Below, one piece after another: positions 10,380 to 24,442 of a stretch of 44,582 nt of DNA. The position numbers were made by a program, and so were the translations under genes. Under the pieces are notes generated by a model. It had not been told where the DNA came from and ran no database searches. It worked only from the letters and a program-made list of their open reading frames with translations. The stretch comes from a virus. The stretch spans positions 93,019-137,600 of the IMG/VR virus record IMGVR_UViG_3300018465_000004; one strand, given 5' to 3'. Each line of letters opens with the position of its first letter. Positions within the stretch are counted from its first letter, which is position 1.

Positions 10380-11201
10380 ATGGGGACGATCATCTTCGAC
10401 CGGGATGAGCTTGACCTCATCGTGTCCCTCGCCGGTTGCACGCTGAACAAGTCCCCCGGGAAGAACTGGGTCGAGGGCGCGGGCGGTCTGCCGGAGTACA
10501 TCTGCCGCATCGCCCGCGCCATCCATCGCACCGGAAAGACCGTCTCTCAGGCGATCGCCATCGCCGTGTCCCGGGTCAAAAAGTGGGCCGCCGGAGCCGA
10601 CGACGTCGATGCTGACACCCGGGCCAAGGCCGCCAAGGCACTGGCCCAGTGGGAAGCGCTCAAGGTGAAGAACAAGGCCAAGACGGCAGCCAAGAAGGTC
10701 GCCGGCAAGGCAAGTGGTGCCGGCGCGGACCGCGACACCGTGCGGGCCAGCTCCGTCGCCGGCCACGAGATCCTGTGCCTGGCCAAGACCGACTTCAACG
10801 TCGACAAGGTGAAGGCCGCGTTCGACAACCACACCCGCTCGGCCCGTAACGCCTGGCGCGCCGCAAACCCGAGCAGCAACTACGAGGACGGCCCGCCGTA
10901 CTTTTACGTTCGGGAGCAGTGGACCAATTACCTCATCGTCTCCACTGACGGGTATCGCAGTGACGGCAGGCTGTTCAAGGTCGGCTACACCGTCGACGCC
11001 AAGCAGAACGTCACCTTCGAAGAGCCGGTCGAGGTGACCACCAAGTACGTCGTCGTCCAGTCCAGCGACGTCGACGACACCGGCATCAGCGACGCCGACC
11101 TCCAGAAGGTGCTCGCCATGTCCGCCCCCGGCGACACCGCCGACCTGGACACCATCCTGCGGTTCGTCGGAAAGCCGGCTAGGCCGATACAGCCAGCGTG
11201 A
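10380..11201 (+). CDS. Phage hypothetical protein (NWVExxGGLPxYI domain)
   Basis: Clean ORF between the small genes and terL; start at 10380 or 10365. Confidence 0.75.
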   Translation: MGTIIFDRDELDLIVSLAGCTLNKSPGKNWVEGAGGLPEYICRIARAIHRTGKTVSQAIAIAVSRVKKWAAGADDVDADTRAKAAKALAQWEALKVKNKAKTAAKKVAGKASGAGADRDTVRASSVAGHEILCLAKTDFNVDKVKAAFDNHTRSARNAWRAANPSSNYEDGPPYFYVREQWTNYLIVSTDGYRSDGRLFKVGYTVDAKQNVTFEEPVEVTTKYVVVQSSDVDDTGISDADLQKVLAMSAPGDTADLDTILRFVGKPARPIQPA

Positions 11202-13099
11202 GCGATTTCGCAGCCTGGCTACGGCAGTCGGCGGACAAGGCCGGCGCCGAACTCGGCAGCATCTTCGCCGAGGAGCCGGTCAGCCTGACCATCTTCGTGC
11301 AGGACCGCGCCTACCTCGGCAACCCGCCACTGTCGCTGGTCCAGTACGAGGCCGTGCGGCACATCGAACGCATCTACTATCCCGACCTGTACCCGGTGAT
11401 GGCGCGCGAGTTCGAACCGGGCAAGCAGGCAGGCCGGTTCCACGTCGGCGCGGTCAGCAGCTGGCGCGACGAGCCGTACTGGTCAAGCCCGGTCCGGATG
11501 ACCAACTTCATCACCCTCCAGTGGGGCAAGGGCAGCGGCAAGGACCACGTCGCCCGGGTGGCCAGCATGCGCATCGCCTACCTGCTCGGCTGCCTGGAGT
11601 CGCCGCAGAACTACTACGGCATGCCCGAACAGGACACCATCCACCTGCTCAACGTGGCCAGCAGCTCGGCCCAGGCGCAGCAGGCGTTCTTCATGCCGAT
11701 CGTGCGGGCGGTGCGCCGGCCGGGCAACTGGTTCGGCGACAAGTGCGAACCCCGGCAGAACGTCGTGTCGTACAAGAAGAACATCGAGTCCATCTCCGGG
11801 CACTCCGATGCGGAGACCCAGGAGGGCCTCAACCTGATGCTCGCCATCGCGGATGAGATCGACGCCTTCAAGACGAAGAAGGAGACCGCCGCCCGTCGCG
11901 GCGCCACCGCCCGGGAACCCACCAAGAGCGCCGAAGGCATCCTCAACATGATGCGCACATCCGGCGCTACCCGGTTCCCCAAGGTGTTCAAGAACGTGCG
12001 GATCTCCTTCCCCCGTTATCTCGGGTCGACCATCCAACGTCTCACCGCCGAGGCCAAGGCCGACCTCAAAGCCAACGGCATCGATTCGCGGCACTACGTG
12101 TCCGGGCCGATGGCCACCTGGGAGGTCAACCCCCGCATCACCGGCAAGGAGGTCTTCGCCGGGGACTACAAGGACGACCCGTTGATGGCCAAGGCCAAAT
12201 TCGAGTGCAAACCGAGCCGGGCCATCAACCCCTACTTCCGCAACCACGCCGCCATCGACGCCTGCTTCCTGCCGATGACACACCTGCCCGTCGAGGTCAG
12301 CTACCGGCTCGAAGACGGCACCGGCCGCCCCGTCTGGGTGCCCCGCTACCGGTTCACCGACTCCTTCTTCCCGGTCCGCGGCGCGGCCTACGCCATGCAC
12401 GCCGACCTGGCCGTCACCGGCGACCGCGCCGGCATCGCCATGGCCCACGTGGTGCGCTGGAGCGAACACGAGATCGTCGCCGAAGACGAGGACGGCGCGC
12501 CACATCCGATCCGGGAAATGCGCCCCCACGTCAAGGTCGACTTCGTCATCTCCTACAGCTCCGACACCTCGGCCAACCCGCCCCGGGAGATCCAGATCCG
12601 GTGGGCCCGGCAGCTGTGCTTTGAGCTGATGAAGCGCGGCTTCAACATCCGCCGCTTCACCTTCGACGCCTTCGCCAGCACCGACAGCATGCAGATCCTG
12701 GAGACCAAGGGCATCGAGTCGGAACGGATGTCCACCGACCTGCACGAGGACCCCTGGCGCAACCTCGCCGACCTGGCCTACGAGGGCCGGCTCACCATCC
12801 CGGCACCGGCCCCCGCGGACCCGACCAACCCACCGGACTTCCTGCTGCGCGAGGAGCTGCTCAGCCTCACCCGGCTCCCCAACGGCCGCGTCGACCACCC
12901 CAGCGACGGCAGCAAGGACGAGGCCGACGCACTGGCCTGCGCCGTGCTTGGCGCGGTCATCCTGGGCGGCCAGGAGGAAACCGGCGGCGCCCGCGCCTAT
13001 CACAGCGCCGCGGAGATCAGCGTCGGGCGGGTCTTCGACCTCCCGGTCGGGGTCAACCCCAGCACGGTGTGGGAGACCGAGATCCCCTCACCCTTCTAG
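11198..13099 (+). CDS. terL: Terminase large subunit
   Basis: Walker A WGKGSGKD, Walker B AIADEID, RNase-H-like nuclease motifs HADLAVTGD and DHPSDGSKDEADA; lies directly upstream of the portal gene. Confidence 0.93.
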   Translation: MSDFAAWLRQSADKAGAELGSIFAEEPVSLTIFVQDRAYLGNPPLSLVQYEAVRHIERIYYPDLYPVMAREFEPGKQAGRFHVGAVSSWRDEPYWSSPVRMTNFITLQWGKGSGKDHVARVASMRIAYLLGCLESPQNYYGMPEQDTIHLLNVASSSAQAQQAFFMPIVRAVRRPGNWFGDKCEPRQNVVSYKKNIESISGHSDAETQEGLNLMLAIADEIDAFKTKKETAARRGATAREPTKSAEGILNMMRTSGATRFPKVFKNVRISFPRYLGSTIQRLTAEAKADLKANGIDSRHYVSGPMATWEVNPRITGKEVFAGDYKDDPLMAKAKFECKPSRAINPYFRNHAAIDACFLPMTHLPVEVSYRLEDGTGRPVWVPRYRFTDSFFPVRGAAYAMHADLAVTGDRAGIAMAHVVRWSEHEIVAEDEDGAPHPIREMRPHVKVDFVISYSSDTSANPPREIQIRWARQLCFELMKRGFNIRRFTFDAFASTDSMQILETKGIESERMSTDLHEDPWRNLADLAYEGRLTIPAPAPADPTNPPDFLLREELLSLTRLPNGRVDHPSDGSKDEADALACAVLGAVILGGQEETGGARAYHSAAEISVGRVFDLPVGVNPSTVWETEIPSPF

Positions 13100-13150: not shown

Positions 13151-15202
13151 ATGACTTCGCCGGTGAAGAAGGCGCCACAGGGCCAGCGCGCCACCATGGC
13201 GAGCCCCAAGCCGGTCGCCGAGGTCGAGGTCGGAGTCAGCGCGCACCTGCCCTTCGTCACGCCCTACCGCAACCTGTGGGAGGCGCTGCGCGAGGAGGAC
13301 CACCTCACGGTCCGCCAGCTCGCCAGCATGCGCCGCACCGACGGGCAGGCCCGCGCCCTGTACCGGCTCATCGTGCTGCCGATCCGGGCCGCGTTGAAGA
13401 CCGCCACCTACCAGCCTGAGGACCACACCGACGGCGGGGAGGAGGAGGCTGAATTCATCGAGCAGATGTTCACCCTGCCGGCCAACGCGGGCGGCATGGA
13501 GGTGTCTTTCGGCCGGGTGATCGCCCAACTGCTGCTGGCCGTCTTCGACGGCTTCTCCGCCTTCGAGATGGTCTACTGGTCGCCCAAGTCCGGCCCGCTC
13601 AAGGGCAAGTGGACGATGAAGGAGATCGCCCACCGGCCGAGCGAGACCCTGACCTTCCTGCTCGACGACCGCGGCAAGTATGCCGGGCTGCGCCAGCAGA
13701 CCATGTTCCACGGCGAGTTCATCGACAAGAAGCTGCCCGCCGAGCACACGTTCTGGTACGCCGCCAACGAAGAGGAGCGGCCGTTCTACGGCGTGTCCTA
13801 CTTCCAGAGCGCCTGGTACCACTGGGACAAGAAGTTCAAGCTCTACGTCATCGCGCACATCGCCGCCCAACGCGCCGCGGTCGGCACCCGGGTCGGCAAG
13901 CTGCCCCCGAACCCGTCCGATGTGGACAAGCGCGAATTCAAGAAGGCCCTGGCCGACCTCGGCGTCGCGCAGTACATGACCATCCCGGACACCTACACGG
14001 TGGAAAGCCTCAAGGAAGCCGCCGGCTTCGACTTCCTGAGCTACATCAACCACCACAACTCCCAGATGTCCAAGTCCGTGCTCGCCGCGTTCTTCGACAA
14101 GGACCAGGGCGGCTCCGAACCCAAGCTCGTCGACTTCGGCGAGCAGAGCGACGCGCTGTTCATGCTGATGCTCCAGACTCTGATGTCGGAGATCGAAGAG
14201 GTCATCAACACCAAGGTCATCCCACGCTTCATCGACTGGAACTTCAGCTCCGGCAAGTACCCGGTCTTCCGCTTCGGCCAGCTCACCTCCGAACAGAAGG
14301 ACCGGATGTTCGAGCTGTTCAAGACCCTCGCCGTCGGTGGACAGTCGCTGACCATCCGGCCCGAGCTGGTGCACGAGCTGGAGAAGCAGGTCTCCGAGGA
14401 ACTCGGTCTGGAAATCGACTGGGAGACCATCGAGGAGGAGATGGACCGCGACGCGGAGGAAGCCGCCCAGCAGCAGCTCCTCCAGCAGGAGGCCGGACTC
14501 ATGCCCGGCGCCGACGGCGCACCCGGTGCCGGCGGTGGACCCCCGCAGGTCGACCCGTCGCTGCTGCCACCCGGCTTCACCCTGCTCACCAACCCCGACG
14601 ACGCCAACCTGGCCCTGACCGCGCTGGCCCGCGACCTGCTCGACGAGGCGTACCAGACCGTCGAGCTGGTCCGCGGCAGAACCATCAGCGGCATGCCCAA
14701 GCGGGTGCGCACCGCATCCGGTGCACGGTTCTACGGCGTGCCCATCGGCGCCCCGATCACCCGTGACATGGAGGAGCGCACCGCCTCGGCCGGGGTCGAA
14801 GGCAAGCCCTTCGGCGCTGGCGACATCCGCGACCCGAACGGCAAGAACAAGACCGGCCGGGCCACCCTCGGCGGCGGCCCCGGCGCCCCGGCCGCAAGCG
14901 TCGGCACCGTCAACGTCAAGCCGGCCACGCAGTCCAGCACCGTGCCCAAGCGCACCTACAGCCACCCCAACCAGCCCGGGGTGACCCTGCTCGACTTCGG
15001 CGACGGCACGGTGGCCATCCGCGACGCCAAGGGCCACATCTCCGCCCGGCAGCGCTTCGACATCACCTACTTCCGCAAGCTCGGCTGGAAGGTCGACGCC
15101 GCCTTCGCCGACGTGAAGACCGACGCCGACAAGGCCGAGGAAGAGAAGAAGGCGACCAAGAAGAGCACCCCGGCCAAGAAGACGACCCCGGCCAAGAAGT
15201 GA
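13151..15202 (+). CDS. Portal protein (DUF935/Mu gp29-like) with C-terminal extension
   Basis: GFSAFEMVY, PFYGVSYF and INHHNSQMSKSVL segments typical of DUF935; position after terL. Confidence 0.88.
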   Translation: MTSPVKKAPQGQRATMASPKPVAEVEVGVSAHLPFVTPYRNLWEALREEDHLTVRQLASMRRTDGQARALYRLIVLPIRAALKTATYQPEDHTDGGEEEAEFIEQMFTLPANAGGMEVSFGRVIAQLLLAVFDGFSAFEMVYWSPKSGPLKGKWTMKEIAHRPSETLTFLLDDRGKYAGLRQQTMFHGEFIDKKLPAEHTFWYAANEEERPFYGVSYFQSAWYHWDKKFKLYVIAHIAAQRAAVGTRVGKLPPNPSDVDKREFKKALADLGVAQYMTIPDTYTVESLKEAAGFDFLSYINHHNSQMSKSVLAAFFDKDQGGSEPKLVDFGEQSDALFMLMLQTLMSEIEEVINTKVIPRFIDWNFSSGKYPVFRFGQLTSEQKDRMFELFKTLAVGGQSLTIRPELVHELEKQVSEELGLEIDWETIEEEMDRDAEEAAQQQLLQQEAGLMPGADGAPGAGGGPPQVDPSLLPPGFTLLTNPDDANLALTALARDLLDEAYQTVELVRGRTISGMPKRVRTASGARFYGVPIGAPITRDMEERTASAGVEGKPFGAGDIRDPNGKNKTGRATLGGGPGAPAASVGTVNVKPATQSSTVPKRTYSHPNQPGVTLLDFGDGTVAIRDAKGHISARQRFDITYFRKLGWKVDAAFADVKTDADKAEEEKKATKKSTPAKKTTPAKK

Positions 15203-16179
15203 GCGCTGACAGCGCCGCCCTTCTCACCATCGAGGGGCGGCTGCGCCGCCAGCTCGGCCGAAGGCTGGAGCAGGCCGTCACCCACCTCGGCGGCTACCTG
15301 GGCAGCGTCATCAAGGCCAACCCCGCCTTGACCGGGCTGGAGCTGATGTCCCGGCCCGACGTGCACAAGGCGCTGCTGACCGCCCTGGGCGGCACCCAGT
15401 CCACGGTGGAGTCCACGATCCGGGCCGGATACGCTGCCGCCCGTTCCGTCGCCCGTGCCAGCGCCAGCCGGGAACTCGCCGCCCAGGACTACCAGGTCCC
15501 GACGGAGATCCCGGACCGCGACGCGTACCTCGTCGCGGTCCTCGCCGCCGTCGCCCTTGCCTTCTCCGCGGCCAGCGACGACATCCAGACCAGCGTGCGC
15601 ACCGCCTACGACGGCGCCACCGGCACCCTGGCCACCGCCGCCCGCATCCTCATCGTCCGCCAGGCCCTGCACCGGGCCGTACGCCGCCTCGGGGTGCGGG
15701 TCAACGCGTCCGCGGTGGTCGCACTCCACCGCGGACACACCGACGCCATGCTCGCCATCTACGACGCCTACCGCGCCGCACACCCCTCGCAGACCCTCTA
15801 CAAGACCTGGCAGACCGGCTCCGCCGACCCCTGCCCGGCCTGCCGCGCCCTCAACGGCCAGAGCGTCCCGGTCGACGCCGAGTTCGACCGCACCCTCACC
15901 GCCGACCCCACCCGGCCCCCACCTCCGGTGCACCGCGACCTGCTCGGGCCGCCCCGCCACCCCAACTGCCGCTGCCGCATCACCATCCACGCCAGCACGG
16001 CCAGCGCCGCCGTGCGCACACACACCACCGCGGCGGCCCCGCAACGCCTGCCGGCCAGTATGTCGGCCGCCGACGTGCGACGCCTGCCCATCGCCCGCTT
16101 CACCGCGCTGACCGCGTTCTTCACCGCCGCCGCCCGGCGCATCCGCACCCTGCTCCGAAAGGCCCGCGCCGGTGGCTGA
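15199..16179 (+). CDS. MuF-like minor head protein
   Basis: KTW...CPACRALNG and PPRHPNCRC signature motifs. Confidence 0.85.
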   Translation: MSADSAALLTIEGRLRRQLGRRLEQAVTHLGGYLGSVIKANPALTGLELMSRPDVHKALLTALGGTQSTVESTIRAGYAAARSVARASASRELAAQDYQVPTEIPDRDAYLVAVLAAVALAFSAASDDIQTSVRTAYDGATGTLATAARILIVRQALHRAVRRLGVRVNASAVVALHRGHTDAMLAIYDAYRAAHPSQTLYKTWQTGSADPCPACRALNGQSVPVDAEFDRTLTADPTRPPPPVHRDLLGPPRHPNCRCRITIHASTASAAVRTHTTAAAPQRLPASMSAADVRRLPIARFTALTAFFTAAARRIRTLLRKARAGG

Positions 16180-16399
16180 ACCCACCCGCATCCGCTACCG
16201 CGGGGACGGACCCGAAGTGATGGCCGAGGCCCTCATCGCGTTGCTACGCCTGGCCCGCGCCGGCAGCGATGACTTCACCTTCGGCCCGCTCGTGCTTGCC
16301 GAGCTGGAGCGCGACGGCCTCGAAATCGGCGGTCCCGACCTCGGCGGCGTCATCAACGCCCTCGCACTCGTCCCCGGCCTCGCCCAGGTGGAGGAGTAG
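16172..16399 (+). CDS. Hypothetical protein, 75 aa
   Basis: Overlaps the MuF stop; typical codon usage. Confidence 0.65.
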   Translation: MAEPTRIRYRGDGPEVMAEALIALLRLARAGSDDFTFGPLVLAELERDGLEIGGPDLGGVINALALVPGLAQVEE

Positions 16400-16481: not shown

Positions 16482-19400
16482 ATGGACAGCGGTCTGGTCG
16501 ACGAGTTCGCCACCTTCACGTGGAAGCTCAACTCGTCATCGAACACGTCACTGCACTGGTTCGGCGATCCCGTGCCCGACGCCGCCCTCATCACCCTCGC
16601 CCAGCAATCCACCGACACGGTGGTGACGCCGGCCGAGGTGACGTATACGGCCTCCTTCGGGGACCTCGTCACGCTGGCGGAGACGGCGGAGAAACTTCCA
16701 GATCCCGAACCGGCCACTGTGGAGCCCGCCCCGGCACCCGGTGACGACACCCCGATCCTCATCGGCACCCTCACGCTGACCCGGGCCCAGGTCCAGGAAG
16801 CCATCGATCTGCTCACCGCCAACAAATCCAACTGGGTCGTCGTCCCGTTGCAGAAGATCGGGCACCCGCTCGCCGAGCACAGCTGGGAACTGGCCAACCG
16901 GGAGAACGCCTACGACCCGGCGATCCCCACCCCGAAAGGCCGCCACGCACTCGTCCAGCACCTCACCAAGGCACTGACCGGAAGCCACCTCGGCCCGTTC
17001 GCCCTGGACGCCAACCGGTACGCCATCGCACCGGTACCTGATCCGGGCGACCTCATGTATTGGGGCGTCGACGCCTACCGCGACTACATCGGCAAGGTCG
17101 CCGCCGCGATCGGCAACGGCAAGATCGTGGGCCGAGGTGCCAGCCGGCTCAGCCCCAACAAGCTCGTCGAGTGGGTCCACGCCTGGCTGCGCGGCGATAT
17201 GAAGGCCGTCTACGACCTCGAAATCGACACCGGCGTCATGGGCAGCCCGCACCACCCCGGCGCACCCGGAAACCCGGCCACCCACCGCATCGTCTGGCAG
17301 CCCGCGATCCCCGGAGAGATCCCGGCCGGCATCCGCATCCCTGGCATCTGGAAGAGCCCGGAAGGGTCCTGGACCAACGCCATGGTCGACAACTACCTGG
17401 TCCGCGCCAAGGCGAAGAACCCGCAGTACATGTCCATGTCCCAACGCAGCCGTTGGGTCAAGGCTCACCTTGCCGGACGCAAGTACGACGTCGACCAGAT
17501 CTCCCGCAAGGTGCACCCGCATCAGGGCAACTTCTACCGGAGTCACGCCCCGGTGCTCAGCCCCGACATGCCGCCCTCACAGTGGGACACCTGGCGGAAC
17601 TACGTCGACGATCACGTCGGCGTTGAGGTGTGGCACACCCTGGCCCTGGAGACCTTCGCCGCCGACCACGGCATCACCCTGCCCTTCTTCCACGCCGCCC
17701 AGGTCGCGCTCGTCGCACCCGCGGTCGAGAAGTTGCGCACCGCCGAGCACATCTCCCGCCAGCAGCTCACCTTCACCGCGGCATCGGACCAGCCCGACCT
17801 CGCCGGATTCCACCGCAAGGTTGTGCTCGTCGATCAGCACAAACGCCGTTGGGTCTTCAAGCCGGCACCCAAACCCGACGCGAAGTTCCGCCCCGAGGTC
17901 GAACACGAGGCGCACGTCCTGGCCCGGCTGCTCGGATACCAGACCGCGGTCAGCCACCTGATCACCCACGACGGGCAGTACGGCCAGGCCCAGGCCATGC
18001 TCCCGGTCACCGGAAGCCTGCTCGGTACCACCGGCGCCAAGTTCGCCGACCTCAGCCGCCGCCAGCTCATAGCCATCGCCAAAGAGCACCTGCTCGACTG
18101 GCTGCTCGACAACGACGACACCCACGCCGACAACATCGTGCTCTGCGCCGACGGGTCGGTCATCGGCATCGACAAAGGCCGCGCCTGGCGCTACGTCGGC
18201 GGCTGGGACGGCCTGTCCGCCGACAAGAAGGCCAACACCAACTGCAAGCTCATCTACACCGACCTGTACGCCGCCATCGCCGCCCACCACCTCGACCGGG
18301 CCGTGGTGGACGCGATGTACCACGCCGTCATCGGCCAGGCCACCCGAATGCAGCGGCTGCCGGACGCCGTCCTGGGCGAGATCCTGCACCGCGCCCAGGC
18401 GAACCGGCCGCATTTCAAGCCGTCCTTCTACCAGAAAGAGATCGCCACCGCCCCCACCAACGCGGAGGAACTCGTCGCCCAGATCACCGCCCGGAAGAAC
18501 AACCTCGTCGCCGACATGCAGCTGCTCTGGCAGCGCATCTACACCGCCGCCGGGTGGGAGCGGCCGGAAACCCCTGCACACAATCTCGGCCCCAACCCGC
18601 AGGGCCACCCGATCCACGCCGGCCTGGACAACCCCGACCTGCACGATCTGGTCCCACAGACCAAGAGCTACGGAACTCCGACGTTCATCGCGGGTGAGCA
18701 CATCGAGGAGGCGCACATCCTGCTGTGGCGCGAACAGCACCCGCACTCCGGCTACGCCATCCGCGGCCAGTTCAAAATCCGACCCGGACAGGTCTACGAG
18801 GCGGTCCGCAAGTGGTGCGCCGAGCAGATCAAGACGGCCCTGGCCAAGACCGGCCAGGTCCAGGTCCCCGGCGAGGCCGCCGCCTACGCGGCCATCATCG
18901 CCGCTGCCAAGACGGTCTCCTTCCACCACCAGGTCGGCGACACGGAGTACAACCGGGCCAAGATGGACCAGCTCAACGCCTACAACCACATACTGACCAC
19001 CGTCCGGGACGACGCACGCAAGGGGCTCACCGGCGGCGACCCGGGCGGGCTCTGCGAAGCCCAGATCGAGATGTGCAACCTCTACCTCGGCTACATCCAG
19101 GCGATCTACGAGCGGCTTGTCGCCAAGCTGCAAATCAGCCAGGAAGGCGACTTCCCCCGCTACAAGTGGACCCCCGGCCCCAAAACCGTGACCAAACCCG
19201 GCTACACCGTCGCCAAGCTCCCACTCACCCGGGCTGCTGCCAACCTCCGGATGACCCCCGAGTTCGACCAGGACGGGGAGCTTGCCCTCAGCGGGGACGT
19301 GCTGAAGTCCGACGCCAACTGCACCAACGGCCAGCTGGGGCAGATGTACCTGACGACGTTGGTAACCGGCGAACAGATCGAGTTCCGCGGCGACGCCGAC

Positions 19401-20426
19401 ACCGACACCCCGTTGACCTGCCAGGGCACCGTCCAGTTCACCATCCCCGACGCCAAGGACATGCCGGCCGCCCTTACCCGCATCCGCACCCAGCTGACCG
19501 CGATGGGCTGCCCACTCGTCCCGGCGACCCGCGCCGACCTGGAGCTGTTCTACTGGCGCCACCTGGCCCACATCCTTGCCGACCGTGCCGACAGCCGGCG
19601 AGACGCGCCGCCGTGCAACCGGCGGGCCGCGGACTGGGCAAGGTTCGTCGAGTTCTGGAAGCGGGCCGACAGCAACAAGCCAGACGAGATCGCCCGCTGG
19701 CGGCACGCCTTCGCCGCGCTCACCTCACCCGCGCAGATCGCCACGTTCGTCGACTCCGGCGGACACCTGCCCCGCTTCCAGCACCTGGACCTGCGAGCCC
19801 CGCACCAGCCCTGCGGCAAGCCCCACTGGATGCGATTCGACGTCACCGACGCCGACCTCAGGGAACGCCCAATGCTCGGAGCCAACTTCCGCAACGGCCC
19901 CGAACTGGTACTCACGGCCGGAGCGGCGATGAGCACCGAGACCCGGATCCGGACCCTGGCCATCTGGAAACCCGGCCAGTCCAGCGCAGAGGATCTCAAC
20001 TGCGGCAGCGGCTCATTCGTCTTCCTCCGCAACGGGATGGAACGCTGGAACGACCCCGCCAGCATCTACTTCCATCCCCGGGTCCTGGCCCGCACCACCA
20101 CCTACACCTTCGGCGGGGACTTCTACGGCCGGCTCAGCTCCCGGCGCGAGTGCGGCCTGTTCGCCTTCGACCGGCACGCCGCACACGTCGAATGCGGCAA
20201 CGAGACCATGGTCAAGGACGCCATCGGACTCCTTGACGACATCGAGCTGATGGTGTTCAAGGGCGCCGCAACCAGGGACGCCTGGGTCGCCCGGCTGGCC
20301 AAGCTGGGAATCACCGAGATCCGCGGCCTGCCGGTCGCCCTGCGCTGCATCACCCGGTCCACGGGCCGGGCAGCTCGCGATGAGGTGTGCGGCCTCATCC
20401 GCGCCACCTACGATCAGGGGTGGTGA
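16482..20426 (+). CDS. Large multidomain protein with a HipA/PI3-PI4-kinase-like domain
   Basis: WVFKP (Lys), helix-C Glu (PEVEHEA), catalytic loop DWLLDNDDTHADN and IDKG (DFG equivalent); start at 16482 (ATG) or 16473 (TTG). Confidence 0.8.
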   Translation: MDSGLVDEFATFTWKLNSSSNTSLHWFGDPVPDAALITLAQQSTDTVVTPAEVTYTASFGDLVTLAETAEKLPDPEPATVEPAPAPGDDTPILIGTLTLTRAQVQEAIDLLTANKSNWVVVPLQKIGHPLAEHSWELANRENAYDPAIPTPKGRHALVQHLTKALTGSHLGPFALDANRYAIAPVPDPGDLMYWGVDAYRDYIGKVAAAIGNGKIVGRGASRLSPNKLVEWVHAWLRGDMKAVYDLEIDTGVMGSPHHPGAPGNPATHRIVWQPAIPGEIPAGIRIPGIWKSPEGSWTNAMVDNYLVRAKAKNPQYMSMSQRSRWVKAHLAGRKYDVDQISRKVHPHQGNFYRSHAPVLSPDMPPSQWDTWRNYVDDHVGVEVWHTLALETFAADHGITLPFFHAAQVALVAPAVEKLRTAEHISRQQLTFTAASDQPDLAGFHRKVVLVDQHKRRWVFKPAPKPDAKFRPEVEHEAHVLARLLGYQTAVSHLITHDGQYGQAQAMLPVTGSLLGTTGAKFADLSRRQLIAIAKEHLLDWLLDNDDTHADNIVLCADGSVIGIDKGRAWRYVGGWDGLSADKKANTNCKLIYTDLYAAIAAHHLDRAVVDAMYHAVIGQATRMQRLPDAVLGEILHRAQANRPHFKPSFYQKEIATAPTNAEELVAQITARKNNLVADMQLLWQRIYTAAGWERPETPAHNLGPNPQGHPIHAGLDNPDLHDLVPQTKSYGTPTFIAGEHIEEAHILLWREQHPHSGYAIRGQFKIRPGQVYEAVRKWCAEQIKTALAKTGQVQVPGEAAAYAAIIAAAKTVSFHHQVGDTEYNRAKMDQLNAYNHILTTVRDDARKGLTGGDPGGLCEAQIEMCNLYLGYIQAIYERLVAKLQISQEGDFPRYKWTPGPKTVTKPGYTVAKLPLTRAAANLRMTPEFDQDGELALSGDVLKSDANCTNGQLGQMYLTTLVTGEQIEFRGDADTDTPLTCQGTVQFTIPDAKDMPAALTRIRTQLTAMGCPLVPATRADLELFYWRHLAHILADRADSRRDAPPCNRRAADWARFVEFWKRADSNKPDEIARWRHAFAALTSPAQIATFVDSGGHLPRFQHLDLRAPHQPCGKPHWMRFDVTDADLRERPMLGANFRNGPELVLTAGAAMSTETRIRTLAIWKPGQSSAEDLNCGSGSFVFLRNGMERWNDPASIYFHPRVLARTTTYTFGGDFYGRLSSRRECGLFAFDRHAAHVECGNETMVKDAIGLLDDIELMVFKGAATRDAWVARLAKLGITEIRGLPVALRCITRSTGRAARDEVCGLIRATYDQGW

Positions 20427-20716
20427 TACCGGTGCTGCTCCACCTCGTCCCGCCCGCCGGCCCCGTCGGGGCCTGGCGGGCGGTCGACGACACCTTGCAC
20501 TGCTACTACCCCGACGAGCACGCCGGGCACGAGCCGACCGCCCGTGCCATCCTCAACCTGCGCGGCACGCAGGTGCCCTGGCCGGTGTGGTTCGAACGCC
20601 TCGCCGAGCGGGCCGGCTACACCGCCGACTTCGCCCTGATGAGCGCCCCGGCCGACAAACCGTTGAAGGCCCTCCTTGGCGAGGCCGTCGCCCTCTGGAC
20701 GGCCCGCAACAGCTGA
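20423..20716 (+). CDS. Hypothetical protein, 97 aa, translationally coupled to the kinase gene
   Basis: GTGA overlap at 20423-20426. Confidence 0.65.
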   Translation: MIPVLLHLVPPAGPVGAWRAVDDTLHCYYPDEHAGHEPTARAILNLRGTQVPWPVWFERLAERAGYTADFALMSAPADKPLKALLGEAVALWTARNS

Positions 20717-20773
20717 TCCACCTCCCACCCAGGCACTGACCGATAAAGGTCAGTGTTTGGGAGGTGGAAGCAG

Positions 20774-21910
20774 ATGCCAGACGAGCTGGTCATCGTCCCG
20801 TCCGACGGTGACGGTTATGTCGAACTCGCCCGTACCAAGCAGGGCAGGCTTTTCCGCAAGCACATCCTCAACAAGGGTGCTCTGCGCCACCCCACCACCG
20901 GGTCGACGATTACCATCGACGACACCTTCGTCGACACCCTCAAGACGAACTTCGCCAACGGGGTTTGCGACATCGTCCAGGTGCCGCTGGCGAACGACAA
21001 GAACGAGCACACCGAGGACCCGACCCGCAACATCGGCGAGGTCATCGGAATCGAAGCCACCGCCGACAAGGTGTACGCGCTCATCGACGCCCGCGATGCC
21101 GACGCTGCGGGCAAGCTCGGAAAGACGCTGCTGGGCGCATCGGCGATGATGCACCTGGACTACACCGACACCAAGACCGGTGAAAAGGTCGGCCCCACCC
21201 TGCTGCACACCTGCGTCACCAACAGGCCCTACGTCACCGGCTTGGAGGACTATCAGGAGATCGTCGCAGCTTCTTCCGATAGTTCACACGGAGCGGTACT
21301 GCTCACCACTGACGTGATCGAAGTCGCAGCAGTGGATGACACAAAGCCCGTTGAGGAGACCACGGACATGGGTGACGAGTCGAAGACTGCGCAGCCGACG
21401 GCCACGCCCAGTCTCGAAGACCTCCTGACGACTCTCAAGAACGACCACAACATCGACGTGACCGCGCTTCAGGCCGCGGCAGCGCAGGCGGACCAAGCGG
21501 CGACGCTTTCCAAGACGCTCGTCGACGCGCTCACCAACGCCGGTGTGGTCAAGCTGTCCAATGAGGAGAAGGAGACGGTCTCCACCGAGACTGTCGTCGG
21601 CGCGGTCGCCACGCTCGCGGAGAACAACGTCGCGCTCACCAGCCGGGTCCAGAAGCTGGAGCGGCAGGACGCTGAGCACGCGGTGCAGACCCTCATCGAC
21701 GCGGGCCGGATCCTGCCGGCGGAGAAGGAAGCCCGGGTCGAGCTGAAGCTGACCAGCCCGGCGATGTTCGACCGGCTCCTGCCGGCCGAGCCGATCGTGA
21801 AGCTCAACAACGCGTCCGGGGTCACCCCGCCGGAAGACACCGCGCACGTCAAGGACATCGACGCCGAGGTCGCCCGGCTCAGCGCTCTCCTCAAGGAGAA
21901 CGCGAAGTAA
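20774..21910 (+). CDS. Capsid maturation protease (Mu gpI-like) with a C-terminal scaffold region
   Basis: GPTLLHTCVTNRPYV motif; helical Ala/Glu-rich C-terminus; GGAGGT RBS before ATG 20774. Confidence 0.82.
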   Translation: MPDELVIVPSDGDGYVELARTKQGRLFRKHILNKGALRHPTTGSTITIDDTFVDTLKTNFANGVCDIVQVPLANDKNEHTEDPTRNIGEVIGIEATADKVYALIDARDADAAGKLGKTLLGASAMMHLDYTDTKTGEKVGPTLLHTCVTNRPYVTGLEDYQEIVAASSDSSHGAVLLTTDVIEVAAVDDTKPVEETTDMGDESKTAQPTATPSLEDLLTTLKNDHNIDVTALQAAAAQADQAATLSKTLVDALTNAGVVKLSNEEKETVSTETVVGAVATLAENNVALTSRVQKLERQDAEHAVQTLIDAGRILPAEKEARVELKLTSPAMFDRLLPAEPIVKLNNASGVTPPEDTAHVKDIDAEVARLSALLKENAK

Positions 21911-21955: not shown

Positions 21956-22351
21956 ATGGCGAACGCCTACCAGGTCATCCCGACCCCCGGTTACACCAAG
22001 GGCCCGGACTACACCGACCCGGAGATCCTGTACTCGGCGGTCGGCTACCGCCAGTACGGCGTGACCCTTGCCGGCGGCCAGGGCATCATCCCGGCCGGCA
22101 CCGTGCTGGGCCAGCAGACCGCCAACAAGAAGTACTACGTCTACAACAACGCCGGGGCTGGCGGCATCGCCACCGCGCGGGGCATCCTGCGCCGGGCGGT
22201 GGACACCGGCGCGGCGGGCTCGCCGGACCAGCAGGGCAACATCCTGGTCTCCGGCATGCTCAAGCTCAGCCTGCTCTCCGGTGCCGACGCGGCAGCCATC
22301 ACCGACTTCGGTGCGGTTGTCGACAGCGTCCGGGGTACCTTCAAGTTCTGA
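21956..22351 (+). CDS. Head decoration protein (lambda gpD-like)
   Basis: GVTLAGGQGIIPAGTVLG motif; position between protease and capsid genes. Confidence 0.78.
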   Translation: MANAYQVIPTPGYTKGPDYTDPEILYSAVGYRQYGVTLAGGQGIIPAGTVLGQQTANKKYYVYNNAGAGGIATARGILRRAVDTGAAGSPDQQGNILVSGMLKLSLLSGADAAAITDFGAVVDSVRGTFKF

Positions 22352-22361
22352 TTCACCTCCC

Positions 22362-22398
22362 GAAAAGGACCGCGTCGCTCAGCCGCGCGGTCCTTTTC
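22362..22398 (+). terminator. Intrinsic terminator-like inverted repeat
   Basis: Perfect 13-bp arms GAAAAGGACCGCG / CGCGGTCCTTTTC immediately after the decoration gene. Confidence 0.75.
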
Positions 22399-22432: not shown

Positions 22433-23296
22433 ATGAACACGGACCCTGGGCTGCTGACACCCGAACGCGTCTCCCGGCTCGATGACCTCATCGCGGAAGC
22501 CGGCCAGATCCTGGAGACGGCGATCGAGACCCACGTCTACGCCGACCGGCGGACGGTCGCAGCTATCTGCTGCCTGTTCTCCGGCGGCAACGACTCCACG
22601 GTCTTGACCCACCTTTTCCGGAACCGGGCCGATTACGCCGTTCACATCAACACCGGCATCGGAATCGAACAGACCCGGCAGTACGTCAGGGATACCTGCA
22701 TCGCGTTCGGACTGCCGCTGATCGAGGAGCATCCGCCGCCGGGCAGCACATACCGGGAGATCGTCCTAGACCGCGGCTTCCCCGGACCCGCCCACCACTG
22801 GAAGATGTACACCCGGCTCAAGGAACGTGGCCTGGAGAAGGTCCGCACCCGGTTGGTCCCCAACCCCTACCGGCAGCGGGTCGTCTTCCTGGCCGGGCGC
22901 CGCCGCGACGAGTCCCACCGCCGCGCCGCAGTTCCCGAGCAGGGCCGAAAGCGGTCCATGGTGTGGGTTTCCCCGCTGGTCAACTGGACCAAGCTCGATA
23001 TCAACACCTACCGCCTGCTCCATGACCTTCCGCGCAATGAGGTGTCTGACCTGCTTCACATGAGCGGCGAGTGCTTGTGCGGCGCCTTCGCCAAGAAGGG
23101 CGAGCTGGACGAGATCGGTGACTGGTTTCCCGACGTCCGCAAGCAGATCGAGGAGCTTCAGGAGGAGGTCCGGGCCGCCGGACACCTCGAACAGCGATGC
23201 CAGTGGGGATGGGGCGCCTACCGAGATGGCGGGCCGCGTTCCAAGTCCGGACTGATGTGTTCGACCTGCGAATGGGCCGCCGACGCTCGGCAATGA
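22433..23296 (+). CDS. PAPS-reductase-family (PP-loop) protein
   Basis: FSGGNDS PP-loop, GRRRDES, SPLVNWT, SGECLCG and C-terminal CSTC. Confidence 0.88.
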   Translation: MNTDPGLLTPERVSRLDDLIAEAGQILETAIETHVYADRRTVAAICCLFSGGNDSTVLTHLFRNRADYAVHINTGIGIEQTRQYVRDTCIAFGLPLIEEHPPPGSTYREIVLDRGFPGPAHHWKMYTRLKERGLEKVRTRLVPNPYRQRVVFLAGRRRDESHRRAAVPEQGRKRSMVWVSPLVNWTKLDINTYRLLHDLPRNEVSDLLHMSGECLCGAFAKKGELDEIGDWFPDVRKQIEELQEEVRAAGHLEQRCQWGWGAYRDGGPRSKSGLMCSTCEWAADARQ

Positions 23297-23431: not shown

Positions 23432-24442
23432 GTGCCCGACATCAGCCTTCTCGAACCCATGGTCCTGCGGGGCGTGGTCGAGAAGTTCGTCGCTCCCGAG
23501 TCGCTGGTGATGCTCGGGCGCGTACCGAAGACCTCGTGGCCTTTCCCGTCCGTCACCTGGGATGTCATCCGTGGCTCGCGGATGGTCGCCAAGCCCAACG
23601 TCCCGAACTCCGAAGCGCACATCGTGCCCCGGCTCGGCCGGTCGCAGGAAAGCGCTGCGTTCGTCTACCTGCGTGAGAAGAAGGTCTTCGAGCCCACCAC
23701 GCTGCACTGGCTGCGGACTCCGGGCGAGATCGCCTCGACCAACGCGGAGAAGGCCGTCATGCGCGAGGTCGCCGACCTCAACCAGCGCCTGGACAACTTC
23801 GCGGAGTTCACCATCTGGGGCGCCATGAAGGGCGAGCTGGTCCTCGACTACCCCGATGTGCAGACGACGGTGGACTACCAGCTACCGGCAAGCCACAAGC
23901 CCGACCCGGGCACCGGCTGGGACACCGCCACCCCGCAGCAGATCGTCTCCGACATCCGCGCGTGGAAGCGGCTGATCGCCCGCGACGGCCGGGTCCCGGC
24001 CCGGGAGGCGTTCGCCACCGAGCTGACCCTCAGCTACATCTTCGACGCCTTCGCCACCACCGGCGCGGCCAACTTCCCCGGCGGTCAGCTGCTGTCCGAC
24101 CGGATGAAGGACAACTACTACGCGCAGGGCACCCTGCCGGGCTTCATGGGCCTGGAGTGGAAGACCGTCGAGACCGTCTACGACGACGACCTCGGTGTGT
24201 CCACCCTGTTCGTCCCGGACAACGCCCTGTTCATCGGCAACTACACCGACCAGCGGCCGATCGAGCTGATGGTCGGCCCGACCGCGGACGACGAGGCACC
24301 CTCGGGCTTCACCGGCAAGTTCTCGAAGACCTGGAAGGACAAGGACCCGTCGGCGCGGCAGTTCCTGATCGAGTGGAACATCCTGCCGGTGGTCACCCGC
24401 CCCGAGCAGATGGTCTACGTGGACGACGTCACCTCCACCTGA
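23432..24442 (+). CDS. Major capsid protein (lambda gpE-like HK97 fold)
   Basis: 336 aa; AAGGAG RBS; highly biased codons; typical C-terminus (WKDKDPSARQFLIEWNILPV); position. Confidence 0.9.
   Translation: MPDISLLEPMVLRGVVEKFVAPESLVMLGRVPKTSWPFPSVTWDVIRGSRMVAKPNVPNSEAHIVPRLGRSQESAAFVYLREKKVFEPTTLHWLRTPGEIASTNAEKAVMREVADLNQRLDNFAEFTIWGAMKGELVLDYPDVQTTVDYQLPASHKPDPGTGWDTATPQQIVSDIRAWKRLIARDGRVPAREAFATELTLSYIFDAFATTGAANFPGGQLLSDRMKDNYYAQGTLPGFMGLEWKTVETVYDDDLGVSTLFVPDNALFIGNYTDQRPIELMVGPTADDEAPSGFTGKFSKTWKDKDPSARQFLIEWNILPVVTRPEQMVYVDDVTST

Follow-up and report, generated by a model that had tools for sequence, protein, structure and literature searches.

A 1314-residue protein of a phage head gene block with a predicted atypical kinase and a tentative DarT-like domain: a candidate capsid cargo and its MuF-fused relatives

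General features of the 1314-aa protein

The window analysed here, a stretch of 44,582 nucleotides (nt) with a GC content of about 68% from an uncultured phage, spans bases 93019-137600 of the IMG/VR record IMGVR_UViG_3300018465_000004, which is 137.6 kb long and rated as complete by CheckV. Its head gene block contains a large gene (16482-20426) for a protein of 1314 amino acids (aa). On balance, this is probably a head cargo protein that combines two enzymes and represents, in a minimal and split form, the "polyvalent" proteins anchored by MuF. One of the two enzyme-like domains is predicted to be an atypical protein kinase, and the other, at the C-terminal end, is tentatively assigned as a DarT-like ADP-ribosyltransferase (ART).

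A sequence-only reading had described a roughly 1310-aa HipA/PI3K-like kinase protein between MuF and the prohead protease, and both the size and the place, in the head-morphogenesis operon and apart from MuF, agree with the gene annotation (MuF at 15199-16179, protease at 20753-21910). The long regions flanking the kinase, which that reading took to be of unassigned function, are indeed unannotated in library searches: the large protein found nothing in NCBIfam or PHROGs, neither its N-terminal nor its C-terminal domain is represented in Pfam, NCBIfam, PHROGs or PADLOC, and no PDB sequence matched the whole protein, the family profile or the C-terminal profile. The modules (Table 1) were drawn from a family alignment of 20 sequences together with AlphaFold2 (AF2) models of residues 80-720, built on that alignment with a mean predicted local distance difference test (pLDDT) score of 88.6, and of residues 700-1314 (pLDDT 87.3).

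Kinase domain

The model of residues 80-720 shows a bilobal kinase fold of the PI3/4K-HipA-CtkA atypical branch, which bears out the HipA/PI3K-like kinase proposed earlier. Foldseek returned 307 PDB matches at E<=1e-3, and all of the 50 listed are kinases (PI3K, PI4K, HipA, CtkA, LepB and eukaryotic protein kinases); VIA-align, run on 48,161 representative chains, placed all of its kinase matches on model residues 345-614, equivalent to protein residues 424-693. HipA_C (PF07804) is the sole Pfam family recurring across the family, with matches in 18 of the 20 members (best E 3.5e-7), and PI3_PI4_kinase and Fam20C matched one homologue each among the 20. On the window protein itself, HipA_C matched weakly and with profile positions 3-62 only (E 1.2e-3), and a word-based search with the kinase region returned family members only.

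The kinase motifs named in the sequence-only reading at about 17800-18200 are all present, within nt 17850-18179: WVFKP at residues 457-461 (nt 17850-17864), E474 (nt 17901-17903), DWLLDNDDTHADN at residues 539-551 (nt 18096-18134) and IDKG at residues 563-566 (nt 18168-18179). Residue roles, assigned by motif position and not by superposition, comprise a G442-x-H-x-K446 loop, K460, E474, the catalytic loop D546-T-H-A-D-N551 and the Mg-binding D564. The catalytic residues are intact and widely kept, as K460 is found in 133, E474 in 128, D546 in 134, N551 in 132 and D564 in 138 of 143 divergent representatives. Judged by its sequence, the active site looks competent, with the Lys, the helix-C Glu, D-x-H-x-x-N and the Mg-binding Asp all in place. 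Its substrate could be a protein, like those of HipA and CtkA, or a lipid, like that of PI4K.

The HipA/HipT and PI3/PI4-type kinases (PI4KIIalpha, CtkA and actin-fragmin kinase) share with this domain the bilobal fold, a G-x-x-x-K loop, D-x-H-x-x-N and the Mg-binding Asp. However, the HipA_C score lies under the Pfam gathering cut-off (18.9 vs 30.5 bits), no HipA_N or helix-turn-helix (HipB-type) match was found in the window protein or its neighbours, and, unlike HipA/HipT kinases, the domain is embedded in a 1314-aa head-operon protein. On these features the window protein would not be classed as a HipA toxin.

C-terminal domain

No part of the protein is better conserved than the C-terminal domain, which may be its main enzyme. 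The sequence-only reading, right about the kinase fold, overlooked this module. The modelled domain probably has an ART fold, since DarT1 (8baq) and DarTG (7omu) were its sole matches among the best 50 of each of two VIA lists, the other rows being helical-bundle matches. In the structure comparison, the DarT match covers residues ~1119-1301 and ~80% of the DarT chain. Foldseek comparison with the ART effector SopF was weak (E 0.12), and BFVD returned several viral proteins of 170-350 aa at a probability of about 0.9, including betabaculovirus ORF32 as well as mimivirus, tupanvirus and mycobacteriophage proteins; a baculovirus family, that of ORF28, has been described as DarT-related by Iyer et al. 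(PMC9503650). The ESM Atlas gave no usable match for the domain, and neither Pfam nor PADLOC, searched at E<=10, produced a consistent one.

Conserved residues of the domain are R1118, D1120, R1155, R1157, S1167, D1171, R1183, D1213, G1216 and E1241 (nt 20202-20204); D1213, G1216 and E1241 are invariant (166/166 sequences). Of these sequences, 164 have R1155, 162 have D1171, and R1118 is present in 160, as is S1167. Compared by eye and not by superposition, the spacing R1155...S1167-S1168...D1171 is like that of the NAD+-binding R35...N48-D49...R52/D54 of DarT1 (PMC11543638). The domain resembles DarT (DarT1 8baq, DarTG 7omu; PMC11543638) in its Arg-rich Ser/Asp loop and in an invariant Glu at the start of a predicted strand, but it differs in having no sequence-profile similarity, no Macro/NADAR antidote in the record and no free-standing form. 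Pfam DarT (PF14487), run over the entire record at E<=10, matched nothing, nor did it match any of 12 domain sequences, and a search for stand-alone copies found only short matches, on contigs <2 kb.

Family distribution and MuF fusions

When 1.84 billion proteins were searched with a C-terminal-domain profile made from the window and 11 IMG/VR loci, at least 2076 cluster representatives matched at E<=1e-3, of which 1265 did so at E<=1e-10; the window gene is no free-standing novelty but the minimal member of a very large family. The 1314-aa protein is the smallest complete form of this family and, for that reason, the most practical construct for expression, structure and activity tests. The top 150 matches are mostly 2000-4200 aa long, with the domain at the C-terminal end. 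Local hidden Markov models (HMMs) for each module found the order N-terminal domain, kinase, middle region, helical domain, C-terminal domain in nearly all full-length relatives, seven modules in the same succession; the cassette, of ~1100 aa, is therefore fixed, and the window gene is its short form. What changes between relatives is the N-terminal end, where extensions reaching about 3000 aa replace the leader: open reading frames (ORFs) of 2348-4231 aa are found in loci L005, L008, L009, L011 and L015, and no Pfam domain was detected in the N-terminal extensions of five giant loci. The C-terminal domain is not always terminal, as 200-500 further residues were seen in P0140 (3813-4193), P0047, P0053 and P0084. 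A scan of genome contigs found no relative.

With an HMM of the family's separate MuF genes, six representative giants were seen to begin with a MuF domain (E 1e-20 to 1e-35) and to carry the entire cassette behind it. In P0042, Pfam Phage_Mu_F is above its cut-off; another MuF-bearing giant, P0070, has a NUDIX domain too (Pfam), and the giant P0140 begins with an Alt/VIP2-type ADPrib_exo_Tox domain. Because giants fuse MuF to the same cassette, the window gene is best seen as a split, minimal MuF polyvalent head protein, for which the MuF gene at 15199-16179 would be the separate anchor partner. The MuF/ART fusions in relatives also provide the strongest case for a window protein that acts together with MuF at the portal vertex and is carried inside the capsid; the virion-delivered effector of the sequence-only reading accordingly remains the best reading and has gained the backing of relatives in which MuF and the cassette are one polypeptide.

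The kinase module alone is found mid-protein in MuF(VG15)-ART fusions of McProf-like Mycobacteroides prophages, of which gp54 shares it at 26% identity (E 2e-22; local HMM E 5.5e-33). This protein, however, ends in a classical ADPrib_exo_Tox domain that profile comparison found unrelated to the window C-terminal domain. The kinase module also opens gp195 of Mycobacterium phage Phrappuccino (L017 26358-32450; local HMM E 1.9e-24), a hypothetical protein of 2030 aa that carries no other cassette modules, adjoins a "virion structural protein" and lies in the tail/lysis region and not in the head module.

A cassette fixed in >2000 clusters, constant in position by MuF and protease and with large conserved non-enzymatic modules (N-terminal domain, beta segments and four-helix bundle), might also have a chiefly structural role, as an internal head or ejection protein of the inner-body or conduit type whose enzyme-like domains are secondary or serve DNA ejection. 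This seems quite unlikely, as no transmembrane or pore-like features were seen and the most conserved positions are the active-site residues of both enzyme-like domains, which argues that catalysis is under selection.

Proposed role during infection

If the protein is a packaged two-enzyme effector, it would be made late together with the head genes, as the uninterrupted + strand block from the terminase to the decoration gene suggests, and taken into the procapsid through the portal/MuF vertex, in keeping with the fusion of MuF to the same cassette in relatives. It might then, by analogy, leave with the DNA at infection, so that in the new host the atypical kinase domain would phosphorylate a host target and the C-terminal domain (tentatively a DarT-like ART with invariant E1241 and D1213 and near-invariant R1155) would move ADP-ribose from NAD+ to host DNA or protein, with host takeover or counter-defence as the potential outcome. 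The small gene overlapping its stop codon may, speculatively, hold the large protein inactive or aid its loading in the producing cell. T4 Alt, N4 virion RNA polymerase and P1 DarB are large capsid-carried enzymes that are delivered with the DNA and act before phage gene expression, and their likeness to the window protein is one of proposed mechanism only. Gene context and MuF fusions indicate that the protein is probably packaged in the capsid and injected into the host, and precedent exists in the polyvalent proteins and in head-packaged ARTs (PMC5512222, PMC9503650).

Co-transcription with the late genes would also suit a late enzyme that is not packaged and acts in the cytoplasm, where it might modify phage capsid or scaffold proteins, phage DNA not yet packaged, or the dying host, with a block to superinfection as one possible result. 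This role, proposed by Benler et al. for a HipA-family kinase between the portal and major capsid protein genes (PMC8008677), is compatible with the other virion-modifying enzymes of the phage (glycosyltransferases and a 3'-phosphoadenosine-5'-phosphosulfate (PAPS) reductase), but we consider it unlikely here, since the MuF-cassette fusions are hard to account for without physical association with the head and since relatives add Nudix and Alt/VIP2-type ART domains that are typical of injected cargo.

Several points weigh against a packaged two-enzyme effector. Conservation of the whole cassette over thousands of clusters fits a core phage function equally well, and Benler et al. assigned a late, non-packaged function to a HipA-like kinase encoded in a phage head module (PMC8008677). 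Moreover, no cultured phage with the cassette was found, no Macro/NADAR partner matched in the 137.6-kb record, and E1241, which stands at the start of an AF2-predicted strand as the catalytic Glu does in ARTs, is only one of the acidic residues that might correspond to DarT E152.

A bolder version, which we think unlikely, holds that the protein is an obligate capsid-carried kinase plus DarT-like machine of a very large clade of uncultured phages with GC contents of 45-70%, in which the ART-like domain would ADP-ribosylate nucleic acid and the kinase would control the ART-like domain or disable host defence; the nucleic acid could be host DNA, stopping its replication, or the phage's own entering DNA, shielding it. 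If true, this would add a new class of DNA-modifying enzymes that phages inject. The main reading, that of a packaged two-enzyme cargo protein, would, if right, mean that the capsids of thousands of uncultured phage lineages share one as yet unstudied pair of enzymes. It would extend the injected-enzyme idea of T4 Alt, N4 RNA polymerase and P1 DarB to a new kinase type, and possibly to a DarT-like transferase employed by phage and not against phage.

Relation to polyvalent proteins

Polyvalent virion-delivered effectors are already known, and what is new is the fixed cassette of an atypical kinase and a DarT-like domain, unrecognized by domain libraries. Like the polyvalent proteins that Iyer, Burroughs, Anand, de Souza and Aravind (2017, PMC5512222) described from phages and conjugative elements, MuF-fused effectors among them, the window protein is a large multidomain protein in a virion/packaging gene context, and it would combine at least two effector-type domains in one polypeptide between MuF and protease, the kinase being a firm assignment and the ART-like domain a tentative one; its relatives are likewise fused to MuF, with Nudix and Alt/VIP2-type ART domains. 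It differs in that its MuF anchor is a separate gene, in that the cassette order is fixed and not shuffled, and in that the window kinase retains its C-lobe and resembles PI4K, CtkA and HipA, whereas the kinase clade of PMC5512222 is described there as having lost the C-terminal subdomain and as mainly found in Verrucomicrobia-Chlamydia and Bacteroidetes prophages.

Genomic context and the small downstream gene

The large gene is a single + strand ORF that runs from TTG 16473 or ATG 16482 to the stop codon at 20424-20426, and a purine run, GAGAGGGA, lies 13-20 nt 5' of ATG 16482. The genes on the + strand follow each other in the order terminase, portal, MuF, 75-aa ORF, 1314-aa gene, small ORF, protease, decoration, PAPS reductase and major head protein (Table 1). 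A consensus scan found no + strand terminator-like site between 13000 and 22374, so the 1314-aa gene is most simply part of a late head transcript. A terminator-like site (22374-22391) lies just 5' of the PAPS-reductase gene. In the portal protein, the Mu portal domain is followed by a C-terminal extension of ~250 aa, and residues 514-538 weakly match PHROG "RNA ligase"; the 75-aa ORF had no family match in library scans of the Pfam/PHROG/NCBIfam type.

Table 1. Features of the 1314-aa protein and of the surrounding head genes in the window.
Feature	Position (nt)	Strand	Remarks
Terminase (large)	11198-13099	+	
Mu-type portal	13151-15202	+	
Short MuF (head morphogenesis) gene	15199-16179	+	326 aa; Pfam Phage_Mu_F E 4e-6; PHROG head-morphogenesis families
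75-aa ORF between MuF and large gene	16172-16399	+	59-68% identity, same position, in L004 and L006
Large gene	16482-20426	+	1314 aa, P0002; public gene call begins at ATG
Variable Pro/Ala-rich N-terminal leader	16482-16766	+	residues 1-95; unalignable in family alignment
Conserved N-terminal domain	16767-17750	+	residues ~96-423; motifs HPGxP and W.PAV.GE.PAG; mostly helical; family alignment, AF2 pLDDT ~90
Predicted atypical protein-kinase-like domain	17751-18566	+	residues 424-695
Middle region	18579-19517	+	beta segment 700-770, four-helix bundle 771-885, beta segment 905-1012; AF2, pLDDT 87; kept in relatives
Helical linker domain	19518-19763	+	residues 1013-1094; invariant DLELFYWR motif; alignment, AF2, relatives
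C-terminal alpha/beta domain	19764-20423	+	residues 1095-1314; probable DarT-like ADP-ribosyltransferase fold
Small gene	20423-20716	+	~97 aa; motif PVGxWR...YYP; likely GTG start overlaps TGA stop of large gene (GTGA, 20423-20426); open frame 20387-20716
Mu gpI-like prohead protease/scaffold	20753-21910	+	Pfam Mu-like_Pro E 1.6e-5; PHROG head maturation protease; downstream boundary of unit
Decoration protein	21956-22351	+	
PAPS-reductase-family gene	22433-23296	+	inserted between decoration and major head protein genes
Major head protein	23432-24442	+	

Homologue contexts were all taken from IMG/VR loci, whose GC contents range from 46% to 70%. In this synteny survey, the order terminase, portal, MuF, large gene, protease, decoration, major head protein was kept in 13/13 related loci, with the large gene directly 5' of the protease in all of them, and 3' of portal and MuF where the flank permits. 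In L005 (4365-13474; 46% GC), the gene for a 2348-aa giant comes straight after the portal, no MuF gene was detected and a search for a MuF domain inside the 2348-aa protein did not find one. In L008, a distant relative, an inserted endolysin/amidase-type gene (14274-15509; PHROG endolysin, E 1.5e-33) separates the giant gene from the prohead protease.

The small gene that overlaps the end of the large one had no PHROG match and is possibly a chaperone or immunity partner. Homologues occupy the same place in L004, L005, L007, L008, L009 and L013, and a diverged related family does so in L010, L011, L014 and L015. At this position, relatives carry either one or two small genes, which belong to a PVGxWR and an FPxG family. 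Neither family is constant, the PVGxWR type being absent from L003 and the FPxG type from the window, L004 and L007. The longest ATG ORF after the large gene (119 aa, 20380-20739) was rejected as the gene, since it lacks homologues and conservation follows the alternative frame.

A MuF locus with a small ORF immediately downstream, here overlapping the stop codon, is also what the MuF polymorphic toxins show (Jamet et al. 2017, PMC5576092), and in that case the large protein would be a toxin for bacterial competition and the small gene its immunity protein. This is highly improbable for the window protein: unlike those toxins, the 1314-aa polypeptide has no MuF domain, which is encoded separately, and its C-terminus is conserved and not variable, contrary to the polymorphic-toxin behaviour that the sequence-only reading had brought in. 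Close relatives show no C-terminal swapping, their variable part is the N-terminal extension, and the small-gene families are not constant partners.

Among the remaining modules, the N-terminal domain (~96-423) received no family or fold assignment from library and structure searches because the kinase fills the hit lists. NlpC/P60 and CHAP leads for this domain in the ESM Atlas (0.76-0.78) were dismissed as noise-level, and the family-consensus Cys is absent from the window protein. A DnaK substrate-binding domain in the middle region was likewise rejected, as the Foldseek match was too weak (E about 1e-2, template modelling (TM) score about 0.2), and the four-helix bundle gave generic helical matches only in the structure search.

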